Below are positions 31,317-46,303 of a stretch of 64,000 nucleotides of DNA, one piece after another. Both the position numbers and the translations under genes were made by a program. The notes beneath the pieces are model-generated. The model had not been told where the DNA came from, did not search any database, and was given only the letters and a program-made list of their open reading frames with translations. The number at the start of each line of letters is the position of its first letter. Positions within the stretch are counted from its first letter, which is position 1. Source of the stretch: a virus; IMG/VR virus record IMGVR_UViG_3300028920_000004, positions 1-64,000 of that record. One strand, 5' to 3'.

Positions 31317-32665
31317 TAATTATTATGGAAGAAACTTATCCTTCTATATATGAATATTATGATTATTTAATTAAGACTTATATATCCAATCTATCAGATT
31401 ATAGTGATTGGATTTCTACTGAAAGAATTGATAATTTTTATTCTAAAAACCAACCTATACGATATAGAATTCCTTTCAATACTCATGATGAATTCGGAAA
31501 CGAAAAAACCGAAAGTGAATGGGTATGGGTTACTAAAGAACAATTAGCTATTGCTCTTTTGCTCAAAGAAGCTCTCCTACAACAATATGATAGATTTCCT
31601 AGTCTAGATAATTTACAATTTCAAGATGAAATATGGTATAATGATTCAAGTGATGATTATAGATGGGCATGTTTTAAATTAATGGATAGTCCTGCACATG
31701 CTTTTTATAATGATTTCTCTACTGAAGGAATGGGATTCGCTAGTTCTACTTGTGTAGTAGATGTTCCTATATATCCTTATTACAGTTGTTGTAGTATAAA
31801 AGGATATAGGATTCCTTATATATGGGCTAAAACATGGATAAAACAACCTAACAGATTTTCAGGATTACAAATAAGATTTGAAGAAAGAACATATATCAAA
31901 ACTTCATCTTCTCCAGATATTCCTACCTTTGTAACCGATGGCAGAAAAAACTTAGAAACTTGGTATAAACCTGTCCAAAGATACTATCTCTATTATAATA
32001 CAGGTCAAAGGTATGGACAATATTATGTAGATTCTCAATTATGTAGAAAATCATGTCCTATTAATGACCGATATTATTCTCCAGGTTTAGGGGAATATGC
32101 TGGAGACCGACCAGATATTTGTAAAATATGGACAAATATAGGAACTGGCACTTGTTCTGATTATGGACTTCCTAATGATGGATATGAATGTAGAGAAGGA
32201 TTATATTATGTTTATCAATGTGCAGAATATGGCTATGATTGTAGACCTTATTATGATTGGATAGGTGGAGGAGGAGTTACTTATTATGATGATAGAACTC
32301 ATCCTGATTTAAGAGGAGCCAATAACCAAATTATAACTCCATATCCTCATGGAGGTTCTTGGTATCTACAAAATCCTTTAGATGCTGTAGATTTATGTGC
32401 TGTATGTTCTTCAGGAAGTCAAAGCGATAAATCAGGAGTAGATAATGAAGACATAGAAGAAATTTGGGTTAGAGCTTATATTGTAGATAGTAAGGGAAAT
32501 GAAATTACATTTGATAAAACTTTAGGAGCCAGCGAAGGAATTCAAAATGCAGAATTTGCGTATGACCAAGTAATTAATATTTTAAGAACTATCCATGAAA
32601 AAATAGAATCAGATGGAGATTTTACTTATAATCTATATTATTATGGTGGTCGAGGAACTGCTTAA
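31304..32665 (+). CDS. Tyr/Cys-rich hypothetical protein, last gene of + operon
   Basis: Long ORF; start probably 31325. Confidence 0.6.
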   Translation: MGGVIIIMEETYPSIYEYYDYLIKTYISNLSDYSDWISTERIDNFYSKNQPIRYRIPFNTHDEFGNEKTESEWVWVTKEQLAIALLLKEALLQQYDRFPSLDNLQFQDEIWYNDSSDDYRWACFKLMDSPAHAFYNDFSTEGMGFASSTCVVDVPIYPYYSCCSIKGYRIPYIWAKTWIKQPNRFSGLQIRFEERTYIKTSSSPDIPTFVTDGRKNLETWYKPVQRYYLYYNTGQRYGQYYVDSQLCRKSCPINDRYYSPGLGEYAGDRPDICKIWTNIGTGTCSDYGLPNDGYECREGLYYVYQCAEYGYDCRPYYDWIGGGGVTYYDDRTHPDLRGANNQIITPYPHGGSWYLQNPLDAVDLCAVCSSGSQSDKSGVDNEDIEEIWVRAYIVDSKGNEITFDKTLGASEGIQNAEFAYDQVINILRTIHEKIESDGDFTYNLYYYGGRGTA

Positions 32666-33404
32666 AATAATCACCTTTTTTTAAAGCTTTACATTTAATA
32701 GTTTTTTTTATTATTTCTTTTCTTAATCTTTTTTGATTATATTTAGAATTGGACAATCGTTTAAAAAATTCTTCATAACTTATATTAGGAAACAAAGTTA
32801 AATTACTATCTCCTACCACTATAATCTTACATTTTTCTTCATTCTGAAAATATCCAAAATCTATCATTTGTTTATTAGGACTATTATAATAGGCATCTTT
32901 GCCTATTCCTCTATGATTAATTTCTCCTTGATAATAATGAGTTAAATTCCTATTAAATTTCTTTTTATTTTTATTCTTTTTTAATTTGCCATAATCATAC
33001 CCTAATAAATAAATATTGCCTTTATCTATCAAATAAATAGCTAAAGAAAGTGTAAAAACTCCTGCCAAATTTTTTCTATATACTCCATCTCTTAAATCTC
33101 TATTATAATGACCACTAGCATACAATCTTAAAGTATTTGGATAAGGAACTTCATCTTTACTTCTATATGTTCCAATTAATAAAGGCAAAGAATCAATTTT
33201 ATCATATTCGTGTTCATAAAATCCTTGATTGCTTTGTTTTGTTGGGTTATAATCTACATAAGAAGTAAAAGTAGAATCAAAATGTTTATAAGCATAATTT
33301 ATAGTAATAACAAATTTATCTTTAATCTTATCTTTTAATCCTTGGCTTAATCCATCTTTAATAGAATAACCCCCTCCAATTATAATTACTTCATTGGGTA
33401 TCAT
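32622..33404 (-). CDS. Maf/MptE-like (GT29/GT42-related) ulosonic acid transferase candidate
   Basis: VIIIGGGYSI...VITINYAY...IYLLGYDY...HYY. Confidence 0.6.
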   Translation of the reverse strand: MIPNEVIIIGGGYSIKDGLSQGLKDKIKDKFVITINYAYKHFDSTFTSYVDYNPTKQSNQGFYEHEYDKIDSLPLLIGTYRSKDEVPYPNTLRLYASGHYNRDLRDGVYRKNLAGVFTLSLAIYLIDKGNIYLLGYDYGKLKKNKNKKKFNRNLTHYYQGEINHRGIGKDAYYNSPNKQMIDFGYFQNEEKCKIIVVGDSNLTLFPNISYEEFFKRLSNSKYNQKRLRKEIIKKTIKCKALKKGDYFKQFLDHHNNIDYK

Positions 33405-34183
33405 ATTTTACTCCAAGCTTCACTTATGATTTTTATAATATTTTCCATATCATCTAAAGGTAATTGCGTAGCACTATCAGATATTGCTTTATCTGGTTCG
33501 GGATGAACTTCAATAAATATTCCGTCAACATATCCAGTAGCTATTGCTCCTTTTATCATAGGAATTACAAATTCTCTATTTCCTCCTGATTTTCCTCCTT
33601 TAGATGGAATTTGTTGGCTATGTGTAGCATCGAAAATAATAGGATAATTTCCAAATTTTTTCATAATCATAAAAGACCTAAAATCTACTATAAGGTTATT
33701 ATATCCAAAACAAGTACCCCTTTCCGTTATCATAATATTCTTATTTCCAGTAGCTTCTACCTTCTCTATGACATATTTTATATCCCAAGGAGAAAGAAAT
33801 TGACCCTTTTTTATGTTGACTTTTCGAGCATATCTTCCAATAGTGTGAATTAAGTCTGTTTGTCGGCACAAAAAGGCTGGAATTTGGACAATATCAGCTA
33901 TTAGAGCTACTTTTTTGGCCTCTTCGACTGTATGGGTATCTGTTAAAATCTTAATGCCTTGTGCCTTGATTCTGCTTAAAATTCCTAATCCAGTTTCTAA
34001 TCCTACTCCTCTAAGTGAATTATTAGAGGTTCTATTAGCTTTATCATAGGAAGCTTTAAATATGAACTCTATATTATCATATTTATCGGTAATTTCTTTA
34101 AGCTTTTCTGCGGTTTTTCGTGTGGTGGTTTCATCTTCGATGGCACAATTACCAGCAATTAGAATAAGTTTTTTATTTTTCAT
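33401..34183 (-). CDS. kdsA: 3-deoxy-D-manno-octulosonate 8-phosphate synthase
   Basis: IAGNCAIE, KASYDKANRTS, QIPAFLCRQTDL, KKGQFLSP, ERGTCFGYNNL, DATHS, EVHPEP. Confidence 0.95.
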   Translation of the reverse strand: MKNKKLILIAGNCAIEDETTTRKTAEKLKEITDKYDNIEFIFKASYDKANRTSNNSLRGVGLETGLGILSRIKAQGIKILTDTHTVEEAKKVALIADIVQIPAFLCRQTDLIHTIGRYARKVNIKKGQFLSPWDIKYVIEKVEATGNKNIMITERGTCFGYNNLIVDFRSFMIMKKFGNYPIIFDATHSQQIPSKGGKSGGNREFVIPMIKGAIATGYVDGIFIEVHPEPDKAISDSATQLPLDDMENIIKIISEAWSKI

Positions 34184-34193
34184 TTGCTATCCT

Positions 34194-34595
34194 TTATAAT
34201 TCTAACATTCCTTTCTTCTTCATTTCTGGTTCAGTATATTCTTTCCCTTTTATAACTTTCCCTCCTATAGATTCTCTATTAATATCATTAGGGTCTATTT
34301 TACCCTTTTCTACAAAGGCTAGTTCTACCATTATACTATCTTTTACCGCAAAAAATCTATGTTTGACTGGAGGACGGACTTCAAATATATCTCCTGGTTT
34401 TAAAACTTTTGACCCTCTTTCCGTTTCTATTCTTACCGCACCTTTAATAACTGCAAAACGATTTATTTTTTTACTATGGGTATGGGTCGAACAAAAATAA
34501 TTTTTCTTAACATTTAGTAGGTCTATCTCTGAAGTTCTGGTAAGAAGCAATCTTTGTCTAGTTCCCCAAATTTTGAATACGCTACTATCGTCCAT
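34194..34595 (-). CDS. Cupin-domain protein (sugar isomerase-like)
   Basis: KIWG...CSTHTH..K...G...LKPGD..V.P..KHRF. Confidence 0.75.
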   Translation of the reverse strand: MDDSSVFKIWGTRQRLLLTRTSEIDLLNVKKNYFCSTHTHSKKINRFAVIKGAVRIETERGSKVLKPGDIFEVRPPVKHRFFAVKDSIMVELAFVEKGKIDPNDINRESIGGKVIKGKEYTEPEMKKKGMLEL

Positions 34596-34598
34596 GAA

Positions 34599-34757
34599 TT
34601 ATTCCTCCTCTGATAATATCTTAGTTCTGTCCTTAATTACTTTTAGAGAATCTTTACCTCTTTTTCTAACCACATAATCGTAATCTTCTATCTCATCTTC
34701 TAATACCTTTTCTCTTTTATCCAAAACTAACATCTTAACATTTTTAAGGATTCTCAT
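34599..34757 (-). CDS. Small hypothetical protein, 52 aa (not in ORF track)
   Basis: MRILKNVKMLVLDKREKVLEDEIEDY...; fills the gap between genes. Confidence 0.45.
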   Translation of the reverse strand: MRILKNVKMLVLDKREKVLEDEIEDYDYVVRKRGKDSLKVIKDRTKILSEEE

Positions 34758-35712
34758 GAGTTTCTAATACCCTTTCTGTTTGGTTAATAAAGTTTTTAAT
34801 ATCTTCTAATTTAATCGCTACTGCAAGAGAAGGATATTTTTCTACATCTTGAAAAATAAATCCTTCTACATTATATATAATACCTACAACCACTCCTACT
34901 ATTTGTCCTTGTCTATTTACTACCATTCCTCCAGAATTACCAGGAAAGGTTGGAGCACTTATAAGCATGTAATAGTTATAACTATCATTATATTTTCTTT
35001 TTATATAATTTGATACTATTCCTCGTTGTATGGTATAATGGAAACAATAAGGATGCCCTACAGTATATATTTCAGACCCTTTAGCTGGTATTTTTTTAGA
35101 TATATTAATAGCTGATACCTTTTGAATAGGTTTTTTTAGTCTTATAATAGATAAATCTAAATTATCAGCTTTAAAAATATTAGAATTTTCTATTTCAAAA
35201 AATTCTTGAATATCGTCATTTAAATTTACCACTACTCTATATTTATCAGAATTTTTAACCACATGTTTTGCGGTTAAAATCCATATATAATTTTCATCTA
35301 TTTGATATATTGTTCCTGTACCTCCTACTTTTCCGCATATAATTTCTACTGTAGCTTTTTGTAAATCTATAAAACTTGGAGTTTTTACATACTCATCTAT
35401 TATGTTGTCATATATTATCTGTTGTATGCTTACTTCATTTAACATCTCTCTATTAGTAGATATTAAACTATCTACTATCTTTATCTTTTTATTTATTTTT
35501 TGAAAATTATTATCAGATTTTTCATCTACATTTTTAATCTTCTTCTTTTCTTTGACTAAATGATTTTCCATCATCCTTATCCTATCACCTAAATGCTTAT
35601 TAATATTTGTTACATTTTCTATAAATATTCCTCCCATAATTAAAACCCCTACCAAAATTCCTATAAATCCTACTATTACCAATTTCTTCATTTTACTCTC
35701 ACTTCCTTTCAT
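34744..35712 (-). CDS. Membrane-anchored trypsin-like (S1/HtrA-type) serine protease
   Basis: N-terminal TM, LTAKHV, DLSII, GNSGG triad motifs. Confidence 0.9.
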   Translation of the reverse strand: MKGSESKMKKLVIVGFIGILVGVLIMGGIFIENVTNINKHLGDRIRMMENHLVKEKKKIKNVDEKSDNNFQKINKKIKIVDSLISTNREMLNEVSIQQIIYDNIIDEYVKTPSFIDLQKATVEIICGKVGGTGTIYQIDENYIWILTAKHVVKNSDKYRVVVNLNDDIQEFFEIENSNIFKADNLDLSIIRLKKPIQKVSAINISKKIPAKGSEIYTVGHPYCFHYTIQRGIVSNYIKRKYNDSYNYYMLISAPTFPGNSGGMVVNRQGQIVGVVVGIIYNVEGFIFQDVEKYPSLAVAIKLEDIKNFINQTERVLETHENP

Positions 35713-36206
35713 ATTTTAAGCCAATCCCAATTCCTAAAATATTCTTTAAGAAAAGTATTGACATTTTTATGGTAATTATTATCTGAAATCAAAAAATCAG
35801 TATCAAAAAAATGCCACTGTTGTTTATACCAAAATACACAAATACAATGCCCTCCTTGATTATCATTGTGCATTAAATATAAATCGCTTGGAATATTAAG
35901 TTCTTGTAATAATGCTTTAGATAAAATAGCAAAATCTTCACAGTCTCCATATTTAAATTCTATAGTTTCTAAAGGAGTTTGCCAAAAATCATATTTATAG
36001 ACTAAACTTTCGGATTTATATGTTATATTGGTTATTAACCATATTTTTATATCTTCAGGTGTTTTGATATTATTTTCAGATATAATATGTTGTATTTTAT
36101 ATCTATTTCCAGATTCAAAATATTTTATTACTTTGTCATAATGAGGATTATTAGATAATAACATAATCATCATATATGCCAAAAGTATTTTATTATAAAA
36201 TTTCAT
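35709..36206 (-). CDS. Transglutaminase-like cysteine peptidase (BTLCP)
   Basis: DFWQTPLET...GDCEDFA...HCICV...FD. Confidence 0.85.
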   Translation of the reverse strand: MKFYNKILLAYMMIMLLSNNPHYDKVIKYFESGNRYKIQHIISENNIKTPEDIKIWLITNITYKSESLVYKYDFWQTPLETIEFKYGDCEDFAILSKALLQELNIPSDLYLMHNDNQGGHCICVFWYKQQWHFFDTDFLISDNNYHKNVNTFLKEYFRNWDWLKI

Positions 36207-36207
36207 A

Positions 36208-37083
36208 CTAATCCCCCATAACTTTCCTTAATCTTTTATTTGTTTTCTTCATTTTACAGTTCCAATAATTAGTAAAAACTTTTTTCATATCTCTAGTAGC
36301 CACTACTAATTGTTTCAAATTATATTTATCTTTAGCCAATGTTTTAAATTTTTTTAACCCTCTTTTTCTATATTTTTCATATTCTTTTGGTTTATATTCT
36401 ATATATTTACCAGAAATATCAATATTATAAAAAGATTTCCAATTTTTATTTTTAACTCTATATGCCCAATCTATATGTTCAGCCAATTTTAAATTTTCAT
36501 CCCATTTAATATCTATAAGCATTTTAGTTTTTGCTATAAAAAAATTTCTATGAATGTCTACTGGTTGGAACATATTTCCTTCAAATATTAGATAAGGTCT
36601 TTTTGGACAATCCAATTTAAAATGTTTATTTGGGATTAATTCAATATCTCCTTCCCAAGGTACTCTTCCATTTATATCGAATCCGATAGTACCATATTTT
36701 TCATTACTATCTAAAAATCTTATAATATTATTAATATCATATTTATCAGTAAACAATAAAGAATCTGCACTTATCCAACAATATTCATATCCTTTTTCTT
36801 TAGCTTTTTTAACTAAAAAGTTTCTAGCATAACTTAATCCACAATCAAAAGGTAAATTATAATAAGTTATACCATCTCTAAGTTGTCCGTACCCATAATC
36901 TGTAATATTCATACCAAAATTAGAAAATCCTTGTAATTTATCATTATCAGTTTTATAACTTTGATTTCCTACAAAGATATGATAATTCGGATTCCAATTA
37001 TCTAATATAGATTGGACAGATTTAATTAATAAGTCTTCTCTCAAAAATGTAGTTATAATTATCGCTGTTTTATTTTTTGTCAT
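36208..37083 (-). CDS. Glycosyltransferase family 2
   Basis: IIITTFLR, PFDCGLSYARN, WDENLKLAEH. Confidence 0.85.
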   Translation of the reverse strand: MTKNKTAIIITTFLREDLLIKSVQSILDNWNPNYHIFVGNQSYKTDNDKLQGFSNFGMNITDYGYGQLRDGITYYNLPFDCGLSYARNFLVKKAKEKGYEYCWISADSLLFTDKYDINNIIRFLDSNEKYGTIGFDINGRVPWEGDIELIPNKHFKLDCPKRPYLIFEGNMFQPVDIHRNFFIAKTKMLIDIKWDENLKLAEHIDWAYRVKNKNWKSFYNIDISGKYIEYKPKEYEKYRKRGLKKFKTLAKDKYNLKQLVVATRDMKKVFTNYWNCKMKKTNKRLRKVMGD

Positions 37084-37498
37084 AATAAACCTCTAAAATA
37101 GTCCTATATACTAACATATTAGGTAAATAATTATTAAAAATTTCAGCATCTTCTCCGTTAAATATTTTACTTAATGCTCCTGCTACTCCTGCACTCCTAC
37201 TTATACCTGCTTCACATTGACAAATAACTAAATTAATATTATTCTTATATTTGTTTATAAAATTAAGAATATTTTTAGCATCTTCTTGTGTGAATAATTT
37301 TACTTTTATGTCAGAATTAGGCATATGTAAACCATCTAAATCATGAAAATCTAACCAAAGTATATCTAAACAATTTGCTTGTGAGGCTATCTTTCCTAAT
37401 TCTATAGGATATTTTGGACTTCTTATAGAAATTATTATATGAGGTTTATTTTCTTGATAATTTTTTATTTCTCTTTCACTCATTACTAAAAATTTCAT
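37070..37498 (-). CDS. CX5R protein-tyrosine/dual-specificity phosphatase-like protein
   Basis: CEAGISRS, FHD, PN..VY. Confidence 0.85.
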   Translation of the reverse strand: MKFLVMSEREIKNYQENKPHIIISIRSPKYPIELGKIASQANCLDILWLDFHDLDGLHMPNSDIKVKLFTQEDAKNILNFINKYKNNINLVICQCEAGISRSAGVAGALSKIFNGEDAEIFNNYLPNMLVYRTILEVYYDKK

Positions 37499-37507
37499 AA
37501 TATTTCC

Positions 37508-37705
37508 TTAATATTGTATAGGGCTTCGAGCCAATTCTTTTATATCTTTTTTTCTACAATGTGGACATCTTACTTTCCCTGTTTTTCCATTAGGTCTTGA
37601 CCATCTTCCATTTTCTAATAAAATAGTTCCTGTTTTAAAAAGTCTAGTAAATTCTTTATTACAATTATTACACCTATACTTAACTAAAAATTTTTTATTT
37701 TTCAT
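37508..37705 (-). CDS. Zinc-ribbon protein
   Basis: CNNC ... CPHC. Confidence 0.7.
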   Translation of the reverse strand: MKNKKFLVKYRCNNCNKEFTRLFKTGTILLENGRWSRPNGKTGKVRCPHCRKKDIKELARSPIQY

Positions 37706-37708
37706 AGT

Positions 37709-38287
37709 TTACTCCTTATATCCATATTTTATTGCCATTCCTCTTATCATATCTGTAAAAACTGGACTAATTTTATATAAATCTTCCCAAATTAATTTTC
37801 TATGGATTCTCATATTAGCCCTACTTACTATTGGTCTTTTTTTATTTTTTATTCCTAATTCTTTGCACCATTTATTCCATACTTTAGGAAGTTCTTCTAT
37901 CTTATATCTCCAAGAAGCTTTAGATTCTATAACCAAATTCCAACAATACCATGACCGCATACAATTATAAATACTTTGATTTCTATGTTTTAAAGGGTCA
38001 TCAAAAGGCACATATTTATTTATATATTCAAAACTTTGATTCCAAAGAGTAGTAGAAGAAGCAATAACATTTAAAGGATGTCTTACTTGATGAATTATTT
38101 TATCAAAATTGCATTTAATAATATTCTCAGGGGAAGGTTTAGGAAACTCTCCATCCACACAATGCTTCCAAGAAACTGTATATTTATGCCCACTTCTTTC
38201 AAACATTGAATCTTCTCCTAAAGCTCTAAGAAGTTTATAAGTATACATAGTGGCTGACCTAGGATGTCCTGTAATAAGATATTTCAT
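37709..38287 (-). CDS. Sulfotransferase-like protein
   Basis: 5'-PSB loop ITGHPRSAT; 3'-PB QVRHPL..IAS. Confidence 0.75.
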   Translation of the reverse strand: MKYLITGHPRSATMYTYKLLRALGEDSMFERSGHKYTVSWKHCVDGEFPKPSPENIIKCNFDKIIHQVRHPLNVIASSTTLWNQSFEYINKYVPFDDPLKHRNQSIYNCMRSWYCWNLVIESKASWRYKIEELPKVWNKWCKELGIKNKKRPIVSRANMRIHRKLIWEDLYKISPVFTDMIRGMAIKYGYKE

Positions 38288-38721
38288 TATTTCCCTTCCT
38301 TGTTTATTTTCATTATACGTTCCACTTCTTCAATTAATTCTTCTGCACTTCTATAATTATGTTTATAATGAAAATTAATAGCTTTATCATCAAATATAAT
38401 ATCAAAATAAGGTTTAAATCTACTATCACATAAATTAGGGTCTCTTGGAGGTTGTCTATTTATAGCATGATATTTAAAATTATTATCTTTTAACCATTTT
38501 TTTAATTTAGGAGTACACATCCTACCAGTAAAAAGACCTATCCAATATCCTTTATCATAATAATGCTTCATAACATTTCTTATAGAAGCTACAGGACTTC
38601 CTAATTTATCAAACTCCCAAGGTCTAGTATAAGTAGCTATAACAGAATCAAAGTCAAACATTAGATAGCCTTTATATTGTAACATTTTATTCCTCCAAAT
38701 AGGCTTCCCATTTAGTTCCAA
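38287..38721 (-). CDS. HAD-family phosphatase
   Basis: FDFDSVI, FTGR, KP, FDDKA. Confidence 0.8.
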   Translation of the reverse strand: MELNGKPIWRNKMLQYKGYLMFDFDSVIATYTRPWEFDKLGSPVASIRNVMKHYYDKGYWIGLFTGRMCTPKLKKWLKDNNFKYHAINRQPPRDPNLCDSRFKPYFDIIFDDKAINFHYKHNYRSAEELIEEVERIMKINKEGK

Positions 38722-39358
38722 TTAATTTTTTCTTGATATAATTATAATTAATTATTAGTTTTTCTAAAGATTCTTTATTTTGTTTTTTAGTTACTGGTTT
38801 TAAATTTCTAACTTTAACTCCTAAAAATTTTTGTATCTTTTTTAATTCTTTGCTTAAATCTTTACATAAATCTTCGTAATAAACTGTAATTATAGGATTA
38901 TCTTTGAAATAATTATCTCCCCATTCTTCATTATTCTTTATTCCATTAATACGTTGAGCTAAATCTATATAATCTACTTTTATCATTTTTTTGTTAAGAG
39001 AGGTTCTTTTTCTACCTCTTATTAATCTCCACCAACCAGTTTTACACGCAATAAGATGAGATACTACTGTTCTTAATTTATTTTGTCTTTTAAGATGTAT
39101 AACTGAAATATTTTTACTTTTGCACCATTTCCAAAAATCTGCATTTGCATGGTTATAAAATATTTTAACACCTGTTACTTTATAACGTAAATTTCCCCAT
39201 ATTCTTTTTTTCTCAGAAGCTATAGTTCTATTTCGTCTTTTTAATTTTTTATGGTCAAAGGTTTCATTATAACACCTTATATCAGAATGTTTATTTAAAG
39301 CTGATTGTATTATAGTAGAACCTGTTCTTTCTCTTGCTAATATAATAAATTTCTTCAT
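38687..39358 (-). CDS. Stf0-family sulfotransferase
   Basis: ARERTGST, VIHLKRQNKLRTVVS, YYEDL, KQN...I.NY. Confidence 0.85.
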   Translation of the reverse strand: MKKFIILARERTGSTIIQSALNKHSDIRCYNETFDHKKLKRRNRTIASEKKRIWGNLRYKVTGVKIFYNHANADFWKWCKSKNISVIHLKRQNKLRTVVSHLIACKTGWWRLIRGRKRTSLNKKMIKVDYIDLAQRINGIKNNEEWGDNYFKDNPIITVYYEDLCKDLSKELKKIQKFLGVKVRNLKPVTKKQNKESLEKLIINYNYIKKKLIGTKWEAYLEE

Positions 39359-40533
39359 TATTTATCCCTTTTTATTATAGTTAGAACATCTTCATATCCT
39401 TGTTTTAATAAATAATCTACTACAGGAAAAGATACTAATACCTCTAAATGGTTCTTATTAAAAATTTTAGTATTTTCTGGCATATTTTTATATGAAATAT
39501 TTTCTCCTATTTTTTCTTTAGAATATTTTGGATTATCAACTGCTACTTCTAAACGAGGGGTTTCTAAATCTCCATATACCACCCATCTATGACAAGTTTC
39601 TCCTAATAAGCAAATATATTTATTATATTTTTGTAACTCTTTAATCAACATTAAATTCTTTTTTGTGTAAACTGCTTTTTGAATAGTATCATCTTTTGAG
39701 GTTTCTATTTCAATTTTAAAATTTTTAGATTTAAGTTCTCTGAATTTATGCTCTGATACTTTATGTAAATCTTTTAAAGTTTTTAACCCCATTTTTTCAA
39801 GATAAATTTTCCAGCTATCTCTTTTATTATCTGTTCTGGTTTTGGCATATTTACTAGTATCATCTTTCATTTGATGATTAACTACTACTGAGGGCACATA
39901 AGTAACTTTCCATTTAGTTTTCTTTAATCTAAAAAAGAAATCATTATGCTCAACCATTTTTAACCTTTCATCCCACATTATATCCTCAAATATTTCTCTT
40001 TTGGCTAAAAAGAAATTTAAAGCTAATTGAGAATAATAATATTTAATATATGGATATTCTTTCGTAGTTTTCCATTCCCGACTTTCTTTATCTATTAAAT
40101 AAAATTGATGATTAATATTATCTAGGTACATATCATAAGTATGAATATCTCTATTATTAACCCTACCTGCTGATATGCCTATATATTTATCTTCATTTAA
40201 AACTTGTTTAAGAGTATTCAAATTTGTCTGTTCATAAAAATCAAAATCATTATCTATTATCAATATATAAGGTTCTGTTGATTGTTTGATTAAAAAATTA
40301 CGAGCAAAAGACAATCCACAATTAAAAGGTAGATTATAAATCTTATGACCTTCTTTTTCTAATTCTTTAAAAAATCCCATTTCTCTAATATTAAATTTGT
40401 CTTGATTACCGACATAAAATCTTATTGTTGTAGGATAATATCTACGAATAGATTTTATTTCTTCTATGGTTTTATTTATCCTAGTAAAAGAAGGTATTAT
40501 AACTGCTATATCTGGAATTTTCTTATAATACAT
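39358..40533 (-). CDS. Glycosyltransferase family 2 with C-terminal extension
   Basis: PFNCGLSFARN, IIDND, WDERLKMVEH. Confidence 0.85.
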   Translation of the reverse strand: MYYKKIPDIAVIIPSFTRINKTIEEIKSIRRYYPTTIRFYVGNQDKFNIREMGFFKELEKEGHKIYNLPFNCGLSFARNFLIKQSTEPYILIIDNDFDFYEQTNLNTLKQVLNEDKYIGISAGRVNNRDIHTYDMYLDNINHQFYLIDKESREWKTTKEYPYIKYYYSQLALNFFLAKREIFEDIMWDERLKMVEHNDFFFRLKKTKWKVTYVPSVVVNHQMKDDTSKYAKTRTDNKRDSWKIYLEKMGLKTLKDLHKVSEHKFRELKSKNFKIEIETSKDDTIQKAVYTKKNLMLIKELQKYNKYICLLGETCHRWVVYGDLETPRLEVAVDNPKYSKEKIGENISYKNMPENTKIFNKNHLEVLVSFPVVDYLLKQGYEDVLTIIKRDK

Positions 40534-41570
40534 TAAATTTCCTTTATTATTATTCTATCTTCATAAGGATGTTGTAAAACTATTCTCTTAATATCTGTAA
40601 ATAAATTCCATTTTTTATGTTTTACATTTTTCAAAATACATTCGCTATAGAAATTATATTTTAAATAATATAAAAATCTTTTAACTTTGTTCATATCAGG
40701 ATATTTAGTAAACATATTTATTATAGCTTCTATATCATATATAGATGATACTTTTTGATTTATATCTTTGAAATTATAAAAAGCTTCTCCTACTATTACA
40801 ACTGGTTTTTTCCACATCATAGCTTGTAAACCAATTCCAGAATTAATGGTCAATATTAAATCAGAATATTCTATCATTGATTTATAATGAAAATTATCTA
40901 CAATTCTCAAATTTTTAGTTTCTTTGTTAATATGATATTTATCTTCTTTTTCTATTGGATGATTCTTTACTAAAAATAACCAAGTAGGATATTCTTGTGC
41001 CAATTTCTTAATCAATATATTAAAATTAGTAGTATTTTCAATCCAATTACTCCATAAAAGAGTAACAGTATCATCATGAACTTGTAAAGGAACAAAAATA
41101 ATTCTATTATATTTATTTAGATTTATATTTAACATATCACAAAAAAGCCCAAAAGAAGGTCTATTATTTTTTTGAGTTTCTAATGAAGTATTGTCTTTTT
41201 TAAAATTATCAATATATTGATTTATTTTTTCTTTTTGAACTTCTGTTAAAAGATGATTCCATCTACTTTCATCATAAGAAGAACTATCTACCAAAAATCC
41301 ATTTTTATCCATAAATACAGTATTAGGCAAAGCCCCTCTTTCTATAATATAGACTGGATGATTAATTTTTCTAAGATATTCATAAAGTTCAAATTTCCAT
41401 TTATTTCTGTCAGTAACTAAATATCCATAAGGATTCCATAGAAGAACAGGATTTTCTGGAGAAATATTATCACCTGCTCTAAGACTTTTTTTAGAGATAT
41501 TTAAATGTTTTCTAAGCAATTTTACACAAGGATGATTAAAATCTGGAGTTAAAAATTTAAAAGTATTCAT
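40533..41570 (-). CDS. KpsS/KpsC-like (GT107) beta-Kdo transferase
   Basis: IERGALP, FVPLQVHDD (QxxxD), KNHP, TINSGIGLQAM..KPV..G.AFY. Confidence 0.8.
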   Translation of the reverse strand: MNTFKFLTPDFNHPCVKLLRKHLNISKKSLRAGDNISPENPVLLWNPYGYLVTDRNKWKFELYEYLRKINHPVYIIERGALPNTVFMDKNGFLVDSSSYDESRWNHLLTEVQKEKINQYIDNFKKDNTSLETQKNNRPSFGLFCDMLNINLNKYNRIIFVPLQVHDDTVTLLWSNWIENTTNFNILIKKLAQEYPTWLFLVKNHPIEKEDKYHINKETKNLRIVDNFHYKSMIEYSDLILTINSGIGLQAMMWKKPVVIVGEAFYNFKDINQKVSSIYDIEAIINMFTKYPDMNKVKRFLYYLKYNFYSECILKNVKHKKWNLFTDIKRIVLQHPYEDRIIIKEI

Positions 41571-42223
41571 TATATTTCCTTTGGATAATTAAAAGTCTTA
41601 AAATCTTCTTTATACCAAGCTATGATAGTTGATTTTTTCATTTCGTTATTATACAATTCTTTATAATTTTTGTTTTTAGATTCTCTAATTTTAGGTAATT
41701 CTTTTATAATTATATTTGCATTTCTAAACGTCAATCTTAATCCATAATTAAAATCTAATTCAAACTTAATAATTTTATTTATTTTAAATTCTTCTACAAT
41801 ATGACTTTGAATATAAGAATGAGCATCTTTATTGTAAATTCCTCTCGGCAAATAAGTATGTAAAAATTTTAAAAAACTAATACCTTCTTCCCAATCTTTC
41901 CTATATATTCCATAATTGGCTATTGTAGGAACTTTTTTTCCTCTAAATTTTTCTATTTTTTCAGGAGTTGACTGAATTTTATCAAGATATAAAGAAGCAA
42001 TTCTGGTATAGGGATTTCTCACAACTATAAATTTTTTATAATCTGAAGGAATATCTTTAGCATTTATTAATAAATGCCTGGTAGAATCATGAATGTTATT
42101 TTCTTTTATTTCTAATCCCATACTATTTGCTATAATAAATTTAATAGTAGAACTACCAGCTTTTCCATTTACAATATATGCTAATTTACTATTAGGTATT
42201 AATATTGCTTTTATAGGTAACAT
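41570..42223 (-). CDS. Carbohydrate sulfotransferase (Sulfotransfer_2 type)
   Basis: KAGSSTIK, VRNPYTRIASLY, H...Q, Y..DF..FNY. Confidence 0.85.
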   Translation of the reverse strand: MLPIKAILIPNSKLAYIVNGKAGSSTIKFIIANSMGLEIKENNIHDSTRHLLINAKDIPSDYKKFIVVRNPYTRIASLYLDKIQSTPEKIEKFRGKKVPTIANYGIYRKDWEEGISFLKFLHTYLPRGIYNKDAHSYIQSHIVEEFKINKIIKFELDFNYGLRLTFRNANIIIKELPKIRESKNKNYKELYNNEMKKSTIIAWYKEDFKTFNYPKEI

Positions 42224-42633
42224 TATATGATTTTTCCTTTAAAATAAATAGATTCTAAATTTTTATCTGAAGAAATTATTTTTCGTCTTAAAAGTTCTTC
42301 CTTTAATTTTAGCATCCCATAATTTTTTCCTATTTTTTTAATTTTCTTTATTTTAGTTGTTTTTCCTATTTTTGTATTTACATTATCTACTTTAAAAGAT
42401 AATTGAGTATTTTTATTTATTCTATTTTTAAGTGTTTTAAGCTTATGTTTTAATAATAAAATTCGAACTTCATAATTATCAAAAGAAGGAATTTCAAAAT
42501 AATTAACATATAAATTTTTTATTGGCTTTCTAAATATGTCAATACTTTCTACATAACCTATAACCTTTCTTCTATAAATCAATTCGCATATTCTTATATC
42601 TTCATCTATATCTGCTCTTTTATATCTTCTCAT
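42223..42633 (-). CDS. Hypothetical protein
   Basis: Translationally coupled ORF. Confidence 0.5.
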   Translation of the reverse strand: MRRYKRADIDEDIRICELIYRRKVIGYVESIDIFRKPIKNLYVNYFEIPSFDNYEVRILLLKHKLKTLKNRINKNTQLSFKVDNVNTKIGKTTKIKKIKKIGKNYGMLKLKEELLRRKIISSDKNLESIYFKGKII

Positions 42634-42634
42634 T

Positions 42635-43414
42635 TTAATTCCTTTCTTTTAATTGTCCATTATGATTTACTATATAAAATTTATTTACTTTCCAATTTAT
42701 CTTAAAATATTTTAAATGTCTATTTCTTTTTCTTAATTTAGCATATTCAGAAGAAGGTAATTTATGATTGTGTAATATTTTCATATCTGGACAATGACAT
42801 ATTCTTTGTTCATGAAGTTTACACTTTAAGAAATAATCAGCATGTTCGCCTCCAGAAATTTTTGTATCTTCATTCCAAGAATAAAGCAAAGCTTTAGTAG
42901 CTATCCAAAAATTAGGAACATAATCACAATAATAAAATTTAGTTTCTGGAGTTTCTTCCCATTTTTTACCTACATATTCTATGGGTATTCTTATAAATAA
43001 ATTATATTCTGGTTCATATATAAATATACCTTCCCATTCTTGAACTTTTCCATTAGGTCTTGTAATTTTACCACCTACTATATCTGCTACCCCTCTTTTT
43101 AATAAAGATTTTCCTATTTTTAAACTATCATCTTGAAATATAAAATCATCTTCCACAATAACAATATATTTTTGCTTAACTTTATCCAAAAGAAAATTTC
43201 TAGCATATGGAAGACCGCAATCAAAAGGAACTTTATAATAATTTACAAAATTTCTTTCATATAATTCAGTATCTATCTCTTTATTTTGGTCAGCGACATA
43301 TATATGAATATCAGGATAAAATTTACTAATACTTTCTATACATTCCTTTATTGCTTTAGGTCTTAATATTGTAGTTAAAGTTATTGCAGTATCTTTCATT
43401 TTAATCCTCCTCAA
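42635..43414 (-). CDS. Glycosyltransferase family 2
   Basis: TTILRP, PFDCGLPYARN, VEDD, EHADYF. Confidence 0.85.
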   Translation of the reverse strand: MRRIKMKDTAITLTTILRPKAIKECIESISKFYPDIHIYVADQNKEIDTELYERNFVNYYKVPFDCGLPYARNFLLDKVKQKYIVIVEDDFIFQDDSLKIGKSLLKRGVADIVGGKITRPNGKVQEWEGIFIYEPEYNLFIRIPIEYVGKKWEETPETKFYYCDYVPNFWIATKALLYSWNEDTKISGGEHADYFLKCKLHEQRICHCPDMKILHNHKLPSSEYAKLRKRNRHLKYFKINWKVNKFYIVNHNGQLKERN

Positions 43415-44057
43415 ACCAATTCCAAGATTTCATATCTCCTTTAAAATTAGGTTTAAAATAAGGGTCATCTGGAAAATAATCTTTAAGGGTTTCTATATCA
43501 TACCATCCAGTTGTTAATTTAGGTAATTTTTTATTTTTTCTTTTCTTTACAAAACCTACGATATTATATCTTATTCTTTTAAATCTGCCATTTCTTACAT
43601 CAAACCCTGTTAATATTAAATTATACATCAAACTTCCAATATTCCAACCTGTAGAAATATGTCCTCCTACTATATTGTTTTTATATGGAGGTACTATCAC
43701 AAAAAATATACCATTATCATTTAAAAGATTATATATTTTATTCAAAAATATTCCAGTATCTTGTATATGTTCCATAACATGAGAAGCGAGAATGGCATCA
43801 AATTTTTTATTAAATTTGTAAGTCATAAAATCGCCTTTAATAAAATGATAGTTAGGGTGGTTATAATTAAAATGCTTAGTAATATCTATAGAATAAAGTT
43901 CTTTATTATTTTTTGTAAAAAATTTAGTAATATCTGTATGTTTACCAGTGCCTATATCTAAAATACTGTTAAAATTATAAGTAAGAATTTTATTAAAAAT
44001 TTCTATCATATCTCTTTTTTTTATATTCTTTATATTTGACATCATAATTCCTTCCAT
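43401..44057 (-). CDS. Class I SAM-dependent methyltransferase
   Basis: ILDIGTG, FDAILASHVMEH, IVPP. Confidence 0.85.
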   Translation of the reverse strand: MEGIMMSNIKNIKKRDMIEIFNKILTYNFNSILDIGTGKHTDITKFFTKNNKELYSIDITKHFNYNHPNYHFIKGDFMTYKFNKKFDAILASHVMEHIQDTGIFLNKIYNLLNDNGIFFVIVPPYKNNIVGGHISTGWNIGSLMYNLILTGFDVRNGRFKRIRYNIVGFVKKRKNKKLPKLTTGWYDIETLKDYFPDDPYFKPNFKGDMKSWNWFEED

Positions 44058-44155: not shown

Positions 44156-44683
44156 TCATATTATCTTATTATCCTCTAAATATTTTATTACTTTATTTGT
44201 AGATTCTTCTATAGTTTCTGTTTCAGTATCACATATAATTTCAGGATTTTTAGGGGCTTCATATGGGTCATCAAATCCAGTAAAGCCTTTAATTTTACCT
44301 TTTAATGCTTTTTTCCACATTCCTTTAACATCTCTTTTTATACATTCTTTTACAGAGGCTTTGACAAAAACTTCGACAAAATTTGTAACATTATTTCTTA
44401 TATTCTCTCTTGTTTTTGCATAAGGACTTACAAATGAAGCAATTACTACTACTCCATTTCTTGATAAAAGTTTAGATACAAAATTTATTCTATTTATATT
44501 TTTATCTCTATCCTCTTTAGAAAATCCCAAATCATTACTTAATTTTCCTTTTCTTACTATATCCCCATCTAATCGTTCTACTCTTTTTCCTCTGTTATAT
44601 AGTTCTTTAGCCAATTCATCTGCTATTGAACTTTTTCCTGAACAAGGAATTCCAGTAAACCAAACTACACATCCTTTTTTCAT
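44156..44683 (-). CDS. cysC: Adenylyl-sulfate (APS) kinase
   Basis: WFTGIPCSGKS, LDGD, DLGFSKEDR, SFVSP, RDVKG, FTGFDDPYEAP. Confidence 0.95.
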   Translation of the reverse strand: MKKGCVVWFTGIPCSGKSSIADELAKELYNRGKRVERLDGDIVRKGKLSNDLGFSKEDRDKNINRINFVSKLLSRNGVVVIASFVSPYAKTRENIRNNVTNFVEVFVKASVKECIKRDVKGMWKKALKGKIKGFTGFDDPYEAPKNPEIICDTETETIEESTNKVIKYLEDNKII

Positions 44684-44699: not shown

Positions 44700-45647
44700 T
44701 TATATTTTATTTATTATAGTAGCAATTAGATATACAATAGAAAATCCCAAAATTGGAGACATTATCCAAGTTAAAAAACATTTTTTAATAGTTTTTATTC
44801 CTAATTTCTTTATACCTTTTCCTCTATTAGCTACCCCAAATCCAAAAACTGCAAAAGAATTTAATTGTACTAAAGATTGAGGAAGACCTATCAAAGATGC
44901 ACTAATTAATAAACTACCTGTTACTAAACTTATAATACCTGCCGATATTAAATCTAATTGTGTAACTTTTTTTCCTATAGACTGTAAATTTCCTTTGCCT
45001 AAAACAAATCCTCCTATTCCAAAAAAAGGAGCAAGTATAAAAGTCGCTAATTTACTTGTCATAATTTGTGCTCCTGCAAAAACACCTGAAGCATTAGCTA
45101 CATTATTAGACCCTATGCTAAAAGCAGTATAACAACTTGTAAGTATATCCCAAAATTTAATAGAATTATGTTTAAAGTCTTTTATTTTTGGATAAATAAA
45201 TTTACCACATAAAAAAGTAATTAAAAAAGCAGAAAAAGGTAACACTATCCATAAAGGAATCATTCTTTGAAAAATTTCCCATTTAACTGCATTATGATAA
45301 GCTCCATACCCTACAATACTAAAAACTGTAATTTGACTTGTAGAGGCTGGTATTTTAAATAAATTAGCTAAAAATAAAGCAATAGTAGTTCCAGTAAAAA
45401 TGATTAATGCACTTTTTATGTTCAATAATTCTGGATTTATTAATCCTTTACTGATTACTTTCACTACTCTAAATCCTAATAAATAAGCCCCTAATAATAC
45501 AAATATTGCAAATAAAATAGAAGCTTTTTTTCTTGATATTATCCCTCCTCCATATTCTGCTGAAAAAGTAGGAGCAATACCAGACCCTCCCATATTAACT
45601 GCAAATAAAATTCCTAAAAATATTAAACCTATTACTAATAAATTCAT
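44700..45647 (-). CDS. PiT-family anion permease, CysP (sulfate) type
   Basis: Multi-TM; N-terminal NMGGSG..(S)A.YG.G resembles B. subtilis CysP NIGASG rather than PitA; second signature GSNNVANA; PASTSQ. Confidence 0.8.
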   Translation of the reverse strand: MNLLVIGLIFLGILFAVNMGGSGIAPTFSAEYGGGIISRKKASILFAIFVLLGAYLLGFRVVKVISKGLINPELLNIKSALIIFTGTTIALFLANLFKIPASTSQITVFSIVGYGAYHNAVKWEIFQRMIPLWIVLPFSAFLITFLCGKFIYPKIKDFKHNSIKFWDILTSCYTAFSIGSNNVANASGVFAGAQIMTSKLATFILAPFFGIGGFVLGKGNLQSIGKKVTQLDLISAGIISLVTGSLLISASLIGLPQSLVQLNSFAVFGFGVANRGKGIKKLGIKTIKKCFLTWIMSPILGFSIVYLIATIINKI

Positions 45648-45664
45648 AAATTCTCCATTATAAT

Positions 45665-46303
45665 TTAAAGTTTTTTTATTTTCGGAAAAATTTCTAAAGC
45701 CAATTTAAGAATCATATATGGACTATAATGATTCATGTTTAATAAATATTTTTTTATATTTTGCTTATCCATTAATATAGTAGGATTAAGAAACTCAGTA
45801 TTTAAATTATTATGACAATATTCATCTAAAGTTTGTATCATTTTTGTTCTTGAAGGTTTATTGTATATATTATGATTACTCACAAACAATATAGGTTTAT
45901 TATCTAACAATTTATGAATTTTTTTTAATTTGGCTACATAATTATCAGAATAAACTTTTTTATATTTAGTATGTTTATAAAATTTAGGAAAAGGAGATAA
46001 ATAATAACCATGTTCGCACAAATAATTAGTAACTCCGCTAATCTCTATTATATATTTATCTATTTTATTAATAGGAATAGTTATTTTTTTTGTTTTAATA
46101 CATTCTAAATTTCCACTCCGTTTATTTATAATATCCTTATGATTAGGTCTAATACCTTTTAAAATTTCTATAGCTTGAATAATTTGTTCTAACGTATGCA
46201 AATGCGGTAAAATCATATATAATTCCATAGAAGTATCTTTACATCGTCTATATACTCTGGTTGGATTTTTTACTCTGCAACTTCCAATAGTTAATATTTT
46301 CAT
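45665..46303 (-). CDS. Hypothetical protein, possibly SGNH-like glycan-modifying enzyme
   Basis: N-terminal IGSCR, IEIS, C-terminal NHYS. Confidence 0.45.
   Translation of the reverse strand: MKILTIGSCRVKNPTRVYRRCKDTSMELYMILPHLHTLEQIIQAIEILKGIRPNHKDIINKRSGNLECIKTKKITIPINKIDKYIIEISGVTNYLCEHGYYLSPFPKFYKHTKYKKVYSDNYVAKLKKIHKLLDNKPILFVSNHNIYNKPSRTKMIQTLDEYCHNNLNTEFLNPTILMDKQNIKKYLLNMNHYSPYMILKLALEIFPKIKKL

Follow-up and report, generated by a model that had tools for sequence, protein, structure and literature searches.

We analysed a window of 64,000 nucleotides from a complete 96-kb marine-sediment phage (genome length 95,764 bp). The window contains an island of about 21 tightly packed genes, all on the minus strand, that spans positions 32,622-44,057 and extends to 47,466 through a sulfate-activation module (Table 1). 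The genes fall into four blocks, inside each of which neighbours overlap or abut; a single overlapping block, 37709-44057, has glycosyltransferases alternating with sulfotransferases. Every gene class listed in the original prediction for 32,622-44,057 was found there on the minus strand. Beyond that list, the island encodes two proteases, one a membrane protease of the HtrA type and the other transglutaminase-like, as well as a CX5R phosphatase and a 136-aa protein.

Table 1. Genes of the island and its sulfate-activation module, with the evidence for each assignment.
Feature	Coordinates	Strand	Evidence
Maf-like (MptE/sialyltransferase-like fold) candidate CMP-ulosonate transferase, 260 aa	32622..33404	-	Structural match
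KdsA, Kdo-8-phosphate synthase, metal-dependent type	33401..34183	-	NF003543, TIGR01362, active-site columns
Small 3-His cupin, directly upstream of kdsA	34194..34595	-	Cupin_2 27.5 bits
HtrA/trypsin-like serine protease, N-terminal membrane anchor	34744..35712	-	Trypsin_2 73.7 bits
Transglutaminase-like (LapG/BTLCP-like) cysteine protease, hydrophobic N-terminus	35709..36206	-	DUF553 40.4 bits, Transglut_core 31.3 bits
GT2 paralog a	36208..37083	-	PF00535 27.5 bits
Small CX5R (dual-specificity-phosphatase-like) phosphatase	37070..37498	-	DSPc below threshold, E 7.9e-5
Probable sulfotransferase a (weak)	37709..38287	-	Sulfotransfer_3 18.4 bits, below cut-off 27
Small HAD-fold phosphatase	38287..38685	-	Four HAD motifs invariant; Pfam matches below threshold
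Sulfotransferase b (Stf0-like)	38687..39358	-	Sulfotransfer_3 47 bits, Sulfotransfer_1 38.6, Stf0 37.1, all above cut-offs
GT2 paralog b, 130-aa C-terminal extension	39358..40533	-	PF00535 27.4 bits
Single-module KpsC/KpsS-like retaining beta-Kdo glycosyltransferase, predicted	40533..41570	-	PF05159 58.5 bits (cut-off 20)
Sulfotransferase c (Sulfotransfer_2, carbohydrate type)	41570..42223	-	PF03567 44.1 bits, cut-off 22
136-aa basic protein, no assigned function	42223..42633	-	No Pfam, NCBIfam or PHROG match
GT2 paralog c	42635..43414	-	PF00535 43.2 bits
Class I SAM methyltransferase	43401..44057	-	Methyltransf_23 45.4 bits, Methyltransf_11 38.2
APS kinase (CysC)	44156..44683	-	PF01583 197.7 bits; TIGR00455 212.7 bits, cut-off 138.7
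PiT-family sulfate permease (CysP-like)	44700..45647	-	PHO4 127 bits; 7 TM-like segments
212-aa protein, no assigned function	45665..46303	-	No Pfam, NCBIfam or PHROG match
PRK/uridine-kinase-family P-loop kinase	46303..46944	-	PF00485 29.9 bits
120-aa HIGH-motif nucleotidyltransferase (HIGH120)	47104..47466	-	CTP_transf_like 39.4 bits

The QxxxD and HP motifs noticed earlier in the KpsC-like protein were confirmed: in this full-length single module of 345 aa, Q163, D167, H204 and P205 are invariant across 12 homologs and align with the motifs of KpsC and WbbB. Profile matches to KpsC (6mgd, 7.8e-8) and WbbB (1e-6) span the QVxxD and HP motifs; in both enzymes the Asp of the motif has been proven to be the nucleophile that forms an adduct with Kdo (PMC10148158, PMC9587256). 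With an AF2 model (pLDDT 90.7), Foldseek ranks 1-20 were exclusively KpsC or WbbB, and KrkA appeared from rank 23; the model aligned to KpsC with Z 20.2 over 280 residues and to WbbB with Z 16.5, against 13.5 at most for other GT-B folds. The protein thus resembles KpsC/KpsS (CAZy GT107) and the N-modules of WbbB (GT99) and KrkA (GT140), all retaining beta-Kdo glycosyltransferases; it shares both alpha/beta domains, the nucleophile Asp and the HP His with KpsC and WbbB. Unlike KpsC, WbbB and KrkA, to which it is 13-18% identical, it is phage-encoded and has a single module. It is no KpsS/KpsC ortholog (NF050054, 25 bits versus a cut-off of 600) and has no match in any GenBank phage record, and its donor could possibly be a CMP-ulosonate other than CMP-Kdo.

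The last gene of the island, which encodes the Maf-like protein, overlaps the final tail-module gene by 44 nt at its 3' end. The protein has no Pfam match of its own, hence none to PF01973, a family matched weakly by 11 of 42 homologs. Its AF2 model (pLDDT 90) matched Maf (5mu5) with Z 14.3 over 203 residues, then MptE (8.5), Cst-I (7.6) and GT29 (about 7). The modelled fold bears out the reading as a Maf-like transferase and places the protein in a structural class whose members use CMP-activated ulosonic acids: the central fold is common to the Maf flagellin glycosyltransferases (PF01973, MptE-like) and, at Z 7-7.6, to the GT42/GT29 sialyltransferases. Unlike Maf, the phage protein has 260 rather than 632 aa and none of the flanking domains, and a protein acceptor is only a candidate. 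We collected 60 homologs, which carry no source names; the Atlas clusters that resemble the phage protein are viral for the most part. In phage G001, a GT29-like gene adjoins the Maf-like homolog.

KdsA, which is predicted to make Kdo-8-phosphate, scored 350.8 bits on NF003543 and 341.1 bits on TIGR01362, passing both curated equivalog cut-offs (242 and 314 bits). Its metal site (Cys13, His188, Glu225, Asp236) is intact and its active-site columns are invariant in the alignment. The adjacent cupin is closest to clusters, mostly viral, of phosphomannose isomerase (PMI) C-terminal and D-lyxose isomerase cupins. In several lineages it is immediately followed by kdsA, kdsB-kdsA or a KpsC-like gene, and viral contigs show at least five arrangements that link it with kdsA, kdsB or a KpsC-like gene, which is why we consider it a candidate new Kdo-supply enzyme. 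It would feed or process a Kdo precursor, and our leading guess is an arabinose-5-phosphate isomerase acting on ribulose-5-phosphate. KdsB and KdsD had been described as missing from the window; profile searches of the entire 95,764-bp genome gave no match to KdsB (PF02348) or to SIS/KdsD (PF01380), so their absence extends to the rest of the genome. Since the phage does not encode KdsB, CMP-Kdo depends on the host. We also found no enzymes that make or modify NDP-sugars in the whole phage genome. The host would therefore carry out the CTP-dependent activation step (KdsB), remove the phosphate from Kdo-8-phosphate and supply all NDP-sugars.

Two of the three sulfotransferases, b and c, are solid, scoring above Pfam cut-offs; the third, a, is weak. 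Inspection by eye shows PRSAT and RHPxxxxxS motifs in sulfotransferase a, which has no BLAST similarity to the island's other sulfotransferases. The CysP-like permease, the phage's sole transporter-sized polytopic membrane protein, scored 215 bits on the NF053884 sulfate permease model, under the equivalog cut-off of 400. Judged from these genes, the phage itself should furnish the sulfate donor through a permease-to-PAPS supply chain. A homolog of HIGH120 lies directly upstream of CysC in the related phage G004.

The HAD protein had been likened to KdsC, an identity that we do not support. Its family is fused with APS kinase, 2H phosphoesterase, PNKP-type HAD and pyrophosphatase domains, its homolog in G004 adjoins HIGH120 and CysC, and it matches phrog_415 polynucleotide kinase. 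We found no homolog in phage G003, where KdsA is present and sulfation genes are absent. The more probable reading is a nucleotide 3'-phosphatase that belongs to the sulfation module and would clear PAP, an inhibitory by-product.

All three GT2 paralogs score above the PF00535 cut-off and are 27-31% identical in pairs; nothing else in the whole genome matches PF00535. The motifs that they were said to share hold in an alignment, with P-x-x-CGL-x3-RNFL and EH invariant. Paralog a has a degenerate DXD (SADS) and a 39% identical homolog in G003. For the longest paralog, b, the only one checked for this likeness, residues 11-223 match human B4GALNT1 (GT12; 9h6j, E 1.2e-9), a glycolipid synthase. 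A methyltransferase gene is present, as predicted, and L010 has a homolog (34% identical) at 2 kb from a distant KpsC-like gene; what suggests a methylated glycan is the generic class I methyltransferase fold. The P-loop of the CX5R phosphatase, CEAGISRS, aligns with DUSP16, and the protein belongs to phrog_5614, to which no function is assigned.

Parts of the island recur in related phages. In G002, G004 and G008, Maf-like, KpsC-like and CysC genes occupy the same location, following the tail genes. KpsC-like homologs in related phages are fused with GT1 and GT2 modules or with a radical-SAM domain; in G002 and G004 three sulfotransferases lie directly upstream of a GT1-KpsC-like-GT2 fusion. 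The complete phage G003 has the cupin, KdsA, a KpsC-like fusion, one GT2 and the Maf-like gene. In relatives known from cut contigs, where the KpsC-like and Maf-like genes are present, no KdsA is visible. Among viruses outside this group, Cafeteria roenbergensis virus encodes a Kdo pathway. Synechococcus phage S-SCSM2R shares KdsA with our phage, has glycosyltransferase and sulfotransferase annotations in its vicinity, and carries kdsB (PMC12801897), whereas the phage described here lacks KdsB and adds Kdo-type transferases and the permease-to-PAPS chain.

Sequences, motifs, folds and conserved gene neighbourhoods together support the view that the island encodes a set of enzymes which assemble and sulfate a glycan, with Kdo at its centre; this much of the original prediction stands, with the exception of the HAD protein as KdsC. 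We think it probable that this set of soluble, cytoplasmic enzymes builds a sulfated, possibly O-methylated, Kdo oligosaccharide. The Maf-like enzyme, the KpsC-like enzyme or both would put Kdo onto an acceptor, the GT2 enzymes would then lengthen the chain, and the sulfotransferases and methyltransferase would decorate it. Our preference on the acceptor is weak: it goes to a tail or fibre protein of the virion that would receive its glycan within the cell, and a glycolipid of the host envelope is almost equally likely. Mycobacteriophage virions are O-glycosylated by phage GT2 enzymes, and there too soluble phage glycosyltransferases adjoin structural genes and export machinery is unneeded. 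That system differs, however, in its sugars, its enzymes and the type of host, sulfation and ulosonic acids are not known in it, and virion modification is here a hypothesis. The adjacency to tail genes was kept in all six phages examined (6/6), in each of which the tail module borders directly on the Maf-like gene; two convergent transcription units also meet at this site, and the adjacency may reflect a mere insertion hot spot between convergent operons.

A less probable but serious alternative is that the same chemistry places the product onto the host envelope, at a capsule lipid anchor, LPS core or O-antigen terminus, with export by host machinery and a surface altered so as to block other phages or adsorption of progeny to debris. 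The likeness of GT2 paralog b to B4GALNT1 and the membrane-anchored HtrA-like and LapG-like proteases within the island favour it, KpsC, KpsS and WbbB naturally act on lipid-linked glycans (PMC10148158, PMC9587256), and a cell-surface role has been proposed for kdsA and kdsB of S-SCSM2R (PMC12801897). Against it, a membrane-segment survey of the phage genome found no membrane protein of the size of a glycan exporter, polymerase or ligase (flippase, ABC-2 permease, Wzy, ligase or polyprenyl-phosphate transferase), the genome looks lytic, with its own PolB, RecA and SbcCD, and the Maf-like gene keeps its place beside the tail module.

It is improbable that the island makes no single product, with KdsA and the cupin boosting host LPS precursors and sulfation acting on unrelated small molecules or proteins, as independent auxiliary metabolic genes. 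Such independence would fit the at least 557 KdsA relatives on viral contigs, since most of the best 80 have no other island genes within 6 kb, and it would fit G003, with Kdo and no sulfation, and G004, with sulfation and no visible KdsA. However, glycosyltransferases and sulfotransferases alternate in one overlapping block, sulfotransferases directly precede the KpsC-like fusion in G002 and G004, and the phage's only GT2s lie in the island. Hypermodification of phage DNA with Kdo-containing glycans, in the manner of phage DNA glycosyltransferases on 5-hydroxymethylcytosine, is very unlikely: a phage glycosyltransferase that places a Kdo-like sugar acid on cytosine has been described in a preprint, but the enzymes reported to glycosylate DNA have GT-B folds resembling T4-beta-GT rather than KpsC-like or Maf-like ones (10.1101/2023.12.21.572611), and the genome has no thymidylate-synthase-type hydroxymethylase. 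A Tet/JBP search matched neither the phage genome nor any control genome.

The HtrA-like protease has a TM-like segment at residue 6, and L143 encodes a homolog of 41% identity at a distance of 3 kb from kdsA. The LapG match of the transglutaminase-like protease is weak. The presence of two exported proteases within the island points to the envelope rather than the virion.

The viral record is complete (95,764 bp with direct terminal repeats), and the window covers its first 64 kb, with a GC content of 23-31% and a GC skew whose sign flips at ~32.6 kb. The island and the tail module are convergent, and their 3' ends overlap by 44 nt. Since everything from 32622 on lies on the minus strand, the island forms the distal end of a leftward transcription unit. 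Its genes fall into four blocks, overlapping or abutting within each, with inter-block gaps of 98-210 nt. Scans for consensus promoters and terminators gave matches that were not above shuffled expectation, and we found no near-identical DNA in GenBank phages. The gene classes listed in the original prediction of a Kdo-glycan island were each confirmed by Pfam and NCBIfam scans. Beyond that list, the island encodes two proteases, one HtrA-like with a membrane anchor and one transglutaminase/LapG-like, as well as a CX5R phosphatase and an unassigned 136-aa protein.

Coordinates of the island and its flanks in the window, and of related loci on stretches of other viral contigs (L numbers)
Feature	Positions	Strand	Description
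Structural module	up to 32665	+	tape-measure protein (22111-25677), then seven more ORFs ending at 32665
Island, then SbcC/Rad50, Mre11-type phosphoesterase, PolB, RecA and other replication genes	from 32622	-	all genes on minus strand
Maf-like protein	32622-33404	-	
KdsA	33401-34183	-	
Cupin	34194-34595	-	
GT2a	36208-37083	-	
CX5R phosphatase	37070-37498	-	
Third sulfotransferase	37709-38287	-	18.4 against a cut-off of 27; identified chiefly from PAPS-loop-like motifs seen by eye
HAD phosphatase	38287-38685	-	start placed at the ATG giving 132 aa (protein-database call)
Sulfotransferase	38687-39358	-	over Pfam cut-offs (PF13469 / PF00685)
GT2b	39358-40533	-	391 aa; C-terminal 130 aa at 39358-39750
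KpsC-like protein	40533-41570	-	
Sulfotransferase	41570-42223	-	over Pfam cut-off (PF03567)
GT2c	42635-43414	-	
ORF without family match	45665-46303	-	212 aa, between kinase and sulfate permease; N-terminus ILTIGSCRV faintly like GSCFA/SGNH-type hydrolases
HIGH nucleotidyltransferase	47104-47466	-	120 aa
KdsA fusion	L153:5950-7389		KdsA with 220-aa C-terminal domain (no PDB sequence match); small cupin directly after
Operon with cupin and kdsA	L160:4074-6744		JmjC-type oxygenase (MINA/NO66-like), small cupin, kdsB, kdsA
Different glycan island preceding Maf-like gene	L001:2427-9630 (G001)		methyltransferase, radical SAM, PIG-L deacetylase, WbqC, 1054-aa double-GT1 protein, GT29-like sialyltransferase
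~880-aa proteins	L004:3684-6338; L002:2335-4974		KpsC-like module central, GT1 and GT2 modules flanking
Radical-SAM-KpsC-like protein	L003:8201-11389 (G003)		KpsC-like module behind radical-SAM domain; radical-SAM/SPASM protein next
Closest viral KdsA (65% identity)	L143:2545-6789		neighbours: HtrA-like protease (41% identical to the window's), peptide deformylase, BT1/MFS transporter, PQ-loop protein, ClpP

Phage surface-sugar genes are commonly treated as separate auxiliary functions. In this complete phage they form a single block, joining a Kdo synthase, two classes of transferase predicted to use CMP-acidic sugars, sulfate uptake, activation and transfer, and probably by-product removal. 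The distinctive feature is that one complete genome unites a Kdo supply, two ulosonate-type transferases, three GT2 paralogs, including a B4GALNT1-like one, and a complete chain leading from sulfate to PAPS to acceptor. Sequence, structure prediction and genomic context are the basis of our interpretation as a whole.

The KpsC-like protein matches PF05159 over the cut-off, and Q163, D167, H204, P205 and E77 are invariant in 12 homologs, several of them from long contigs. A profile of the 12 homologs matched KpsC (6mgd, 7.8e-8) and WbbB (1e-6) in the PDB, with an alignment spanning the QVxxD and HP motifs: Q163/D167 align with QVESD of KpsC 6mgd and QVEDD of WbbB, and H204/P205 with the HP of both enzymes. 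The Asp of QXXXD is the catalytic nucleophile and forms a covalent Kdo adduct (PMC10148158), the His of HP is the proton donor to CMP in retaining beta-Kdo transferases (PMC9587256), and an N-domain Glu (Glu66 in KpsC, Glu158 in WbbB) is the general base (PMC10148158, PMC9587256). Two of these three catalytic residues, the Asp and the His, are matched by alignment; the Glu is matched by invariance and spacing only, with 90 residues from E77 to D167 as against 94 in KpsC-N. An AlphaFold model of the protein (pLDDT 90.7) retrieved only KpsC/WbbB at Foldseek ranks 1-20, with KrkA from rank 23. The model aligns with KpsC 6mgb at a Z score of 20.2 (rmsd 3.7, 280 of 321 residues, both domains covered) and with WbbB at 16.5; the twelve best entries are all KpsC/WbbB, and the next fold, a generic GT-B, scores at most 13.5. 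We conclude that the protein, as modelled, has the modified two-domain GT-B architecture of the GT107/GT99/GT140 group. Its score against the KpsS/KpsC ortholog model NF050054 is 25 bits (cut-off 600), and the best NCBIfam rows are likewise below cut-off (BFO_1060-family GT, 41 against 200; TIGR04396, 32.6 against 125). Sequence and model thus describe a protein that is not a KpsS/KpsC ortholog; it is a phage branch of that fold, predicted to work like them. A tblastn search of GenBank phages with this protein gave no match. A scan of viral contigs with the single protein as query also returned nothing, whereas an alignment-based scan of IMG/VR did find loci, 39 in all.

KdsA is an equivalog-level assignment (NF003543, 350.8 bits, cut-off 242; TIGR01362, 341.1 bits, cut-off 314), and DAHP synthase models fall far under their cut-offs. 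Residues C13, H188, E225 and D236, together with the KANRS, QIPAFLCRQTDL and KKGQF motifs, do not vary among four phage KdsA sequences; we take the Cys, His, Glu and Asp to be the metal ligands of the metal-dependent class. The absence of KdsB and KdsD, originally noted for the window, holds for the whole phage genome, in which we found no CTP_transf_3 (KdsB/NeuA), SIS, NTP_transferase, NTP_transf_3 or NAD-epimerase domain. KdsB is also absent from each of 31 viral records bearing KpsC-like genes. CMP-Kdo activation and every NDP-sugar would therefore have to come from the host. The HIGH nucleotidyltransferase was set aside as a substitute CMP-Kdo synthetase because its gene adjoins CysC in a related phage (G004) and the chemistry of its superfamily differs: these enzymes adenylylate or cytidylylate oxygens of phosphate or sulfate rather than the hydroxyl of a sugar. 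The KdsC step could fall to the CX5R phosphatase or to the host. By hydropathy scan, the one transporter-sized polytopic protein of the phage is the sulfate permease, and nothing resembles a flippase, polymerase, ligase, ABC-2 permease or WecA; either host export is used or the acceptor is intracellular.

The cupin gene stops 10 nt upstream of kdsA in the window phage, and overlaps it by 4 nt in two other viral records (G003 and G031) and by 11 nt in a third (G023). KdsA is encoded within 4 kb in 15 of 81 loci with cupin relatives, and directly downstream of the cupin in eight of those 15 (tblastn gaps of 15-66 nt). The cupin lies within 6 kb of kdsA at 14 of the 80 top-ranked viral KdsA loci, taken from at least 557 KdsA relatives. 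The order varies: cupin-kdsA; a kdsA fusion followed by the cupin (L153); kdsA, one or more genes, then the cupin; and cupin-kdsB-kdsA (L160 and L161, with kdsB confirmed by PF02348 and no SIS-type isomerase on the contig). In L063, a KpsC-like gene directly follows the cupin. We conclude that the cupin and Kdo metabolism are functionally linked. The kdsA-cupin spacing of L153 recurs on about a dozen viral contigs (L145-L157). In L160, the 321-aa ORF upstream of the cupin was ruled out as a KdsD, being the JmjC-type oxygenase, and the 215-aa ORF after KdsA had no PDB match.

The nearest clusters to the cupin are small, mostly viral cupins with PMI C-terminal or D-lyxose isomerase families (PF01050, PF07385), and the cupin itself scores 19.7 against PF01050, under the cut-off of 23.6. 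Its metal site is not His-His-Glu-His: an invariant N45 occupies the canonical Glu position, alongside H38, H40 and H79. A simple isomerase reading is weakened by this Asn, by the PHROGs label of the family (cysteine dioxygenase) and by the fact that most family members have no KdsA nearby. Arabinose-5-phosphate isomerase is our leading guess, held tentatively and with more doubt than confidence; the alternative is an activity that opens or anomerises the Kdo ring. In the literature searched, we found no paper linking a cupin to arabinose-5-phosphate isomerase activity.

For the Maf-like protein, the original call was right at the level of the fold. The window protein has no Pfam match, PF01973 included, and 11 of 42 homologs match PF01973 weakly (best E 1.9e-4). 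Its profile matched no PDB sequence and Foldseek E-values were weak, the clear answer coming only from an exhaustive structural search, in which the model (pLDDT 90.2) aligned with the Maf flagellin glycosyltransferase 5mu5 over 203 residues (Z 14.3), followed by MptE (8.5), Cst-I (7.6) and GT29 sialyltransferases (~7). An ESM Atlas model reached a TM score of 0.64 to MptE-like clusters. The Atlas clusters resembling the protein are mostly viral, and in two of them 26-27% of members carry the WaaZ_KDO_III family. In another viral record, G001, a Maf-like homolog directly follows a GT29-like gene.

The three GT2 paralogs, the only PF00535 proteins in the genome, score 27.5 (GT2a), 27.4 (GT2b) and 43.2 (GT2c) bits against a cut-off of 23.3. 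They share 27-31% pairwise identity, and alignment bore out the common motifs first read by eye, with P-x-x-CGL-x3-RNFL and EH invariant across all three. The DXD position reads DND in GT2b, EDD in GT2c and ADS in GT2a and its G003 homolog. GT2b, the longest and the one paralog compared with the PDB, matched human B4GALNT1 (GT12) with an E value of 1.2e-9. GT12 enzymes add GalNAc beside the sialic acid of their acceptor, a preference that would suit a chain bearing an ulosonic acid; we regard this only as a lead. By eye, the C-terminal 130 aa of GT2b resemble the extension at the C-terminus of P0063, a KpsC-like homolog, and the two may represent a common domain for docking or oligomerisation. 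We found no published description of phage-encoded sulfotransferases in the literature searched.

The HAD protein had been read as a possible KdsC. This was not borne out: it has no NCBIfam match at all, its gene is linked to CysC rather than to kdsA, and its family is fused to nucleotide-type partners. All four HAD motifs are invariant. A profile search recovered 1,231 representatives, with fusions to APS kinase, 2H phosphoesterase, PNKP-type HAD, inorganic pyrophosphatase, Tad3 and a nucleotide-modification domain. Together with the position of the gene beside CysC in G004, the lack of a detectable homolog in G003, which has kdsA, and a PHROGs match to a polynucleotide-kinase family, these fusions argue that the protein is best read as a nucleotide 3'-phosphatase linked to PAPS metabolism. 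Such an enzyme would remove PAP, the inhibitory product of the sulfotransferases. One homolog, P0111 (279 aa), is a natural fusion of APS kinase and a small HAD. Single-sequence PDB searches with the HAD and CX5R phosphatases gave no informative match.

Structural proteins of three related phages (G002, G004 and G008) are 30-55% identical to those of the window phage, and their islands occupy the same site, just beyond genes homologous to those for the 893-aa and 269-aa proteins of the tail module. The order in G004 is HAD, HIGH nucleotidyltransferase, CysC, three sulfotransferases, an 884-aa GT1-KpsC-like-GT2 fusion, a nucleotide-sugar transferase, an unassigned ORF and the Maf-like gene; G002 shares the fusion and has two sulfotransferases homologous to those of G004. 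These fusions recall WbbB as putative multi-module glycan synthases, and the joining of KpsC-like modules to other GT modules argues that the Kdo-type module works within a chain-building enzyme set. G003 (complete, 102 kb) carries the cupin, KdsA, a 1062-aa radical-SAM-KpsC-like fusion, a radical-SAM/SPASM protein, a GT2 and the Maf-like gene, with no sulfation genes anywhere in its genome; the radical-SAM proteins suggest radical chemistry on a Kdo glycan. The gene content of these relatives indicates that the Maf-like and KpsC-like proteins form a conserved core, and that sulfation and Kdo supply come and go.

We lean slightly towards a virion protein as the target of the glycan. In all six phages examined, the Maf-like gene comes last in the island and abuts the tail module, in agreement with the tail adjacency of the original prediction; export genes were not found, and the gene content suggests a lytic phage. 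By analogy, known Maf enzymes, which glycosylate protein in the cytoplasm, would point the same way. Alternatively, the product could be placed on the host envelope, consistent with the lipid-linked glycans that are the natural acceptors of KpsC and WbbB (PMC10148158, PMC9587256) and with the two exported proteases within the island. Phage DNA, a further conceivable substrate of the transferases, is an unlikely target. Returning to the virion, a joint reading, in which tail or fibre proteins carry a sulfated Kdo glycan begun by the Maf-like enzyme and the cupin is a new, non-SIS enzyme of Kdo-precursor supply, is improbable in our estimation; if true, the virion glycan would have no described counterpart among phages.

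A real product would make this the first phage to which a sulfated Kdo glycan is attributed, and would show that phages import the capsule-type retaining Kdo transferase fold. Three enzyme hypotheses are open to direct test: Kdo transfer by the KpsC-like protein, a role of the cupin in Kdo supply, and PAP phosphatase activity of the HAD protein. The island is also a starting point for learning how uncultured phages of marine sediment change their virions or hosts. We found no published account of phage Kdo-glycan islands with KpsC-like enzymes in the literature searched. KdsA relatives are common on viral contigs and rare in GenBank phages, where 14 records matched. Four of these reach ~40% identity or above: an uncultured phage of 462 kb, two metagenomic contigs bearing an Acinetobacter phage label, and S-SCSM2R; the last was reported to be the first cyanophage carrying kdsA and kdsB (PMC12801897). 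The phage with the closest viral KdsA (L143) shares replication genes with the window phage. As a hint of host, a 7.6-kb contig from the bin of a Verrucomicrobiales MAG carries a cupin-kdsA pair.
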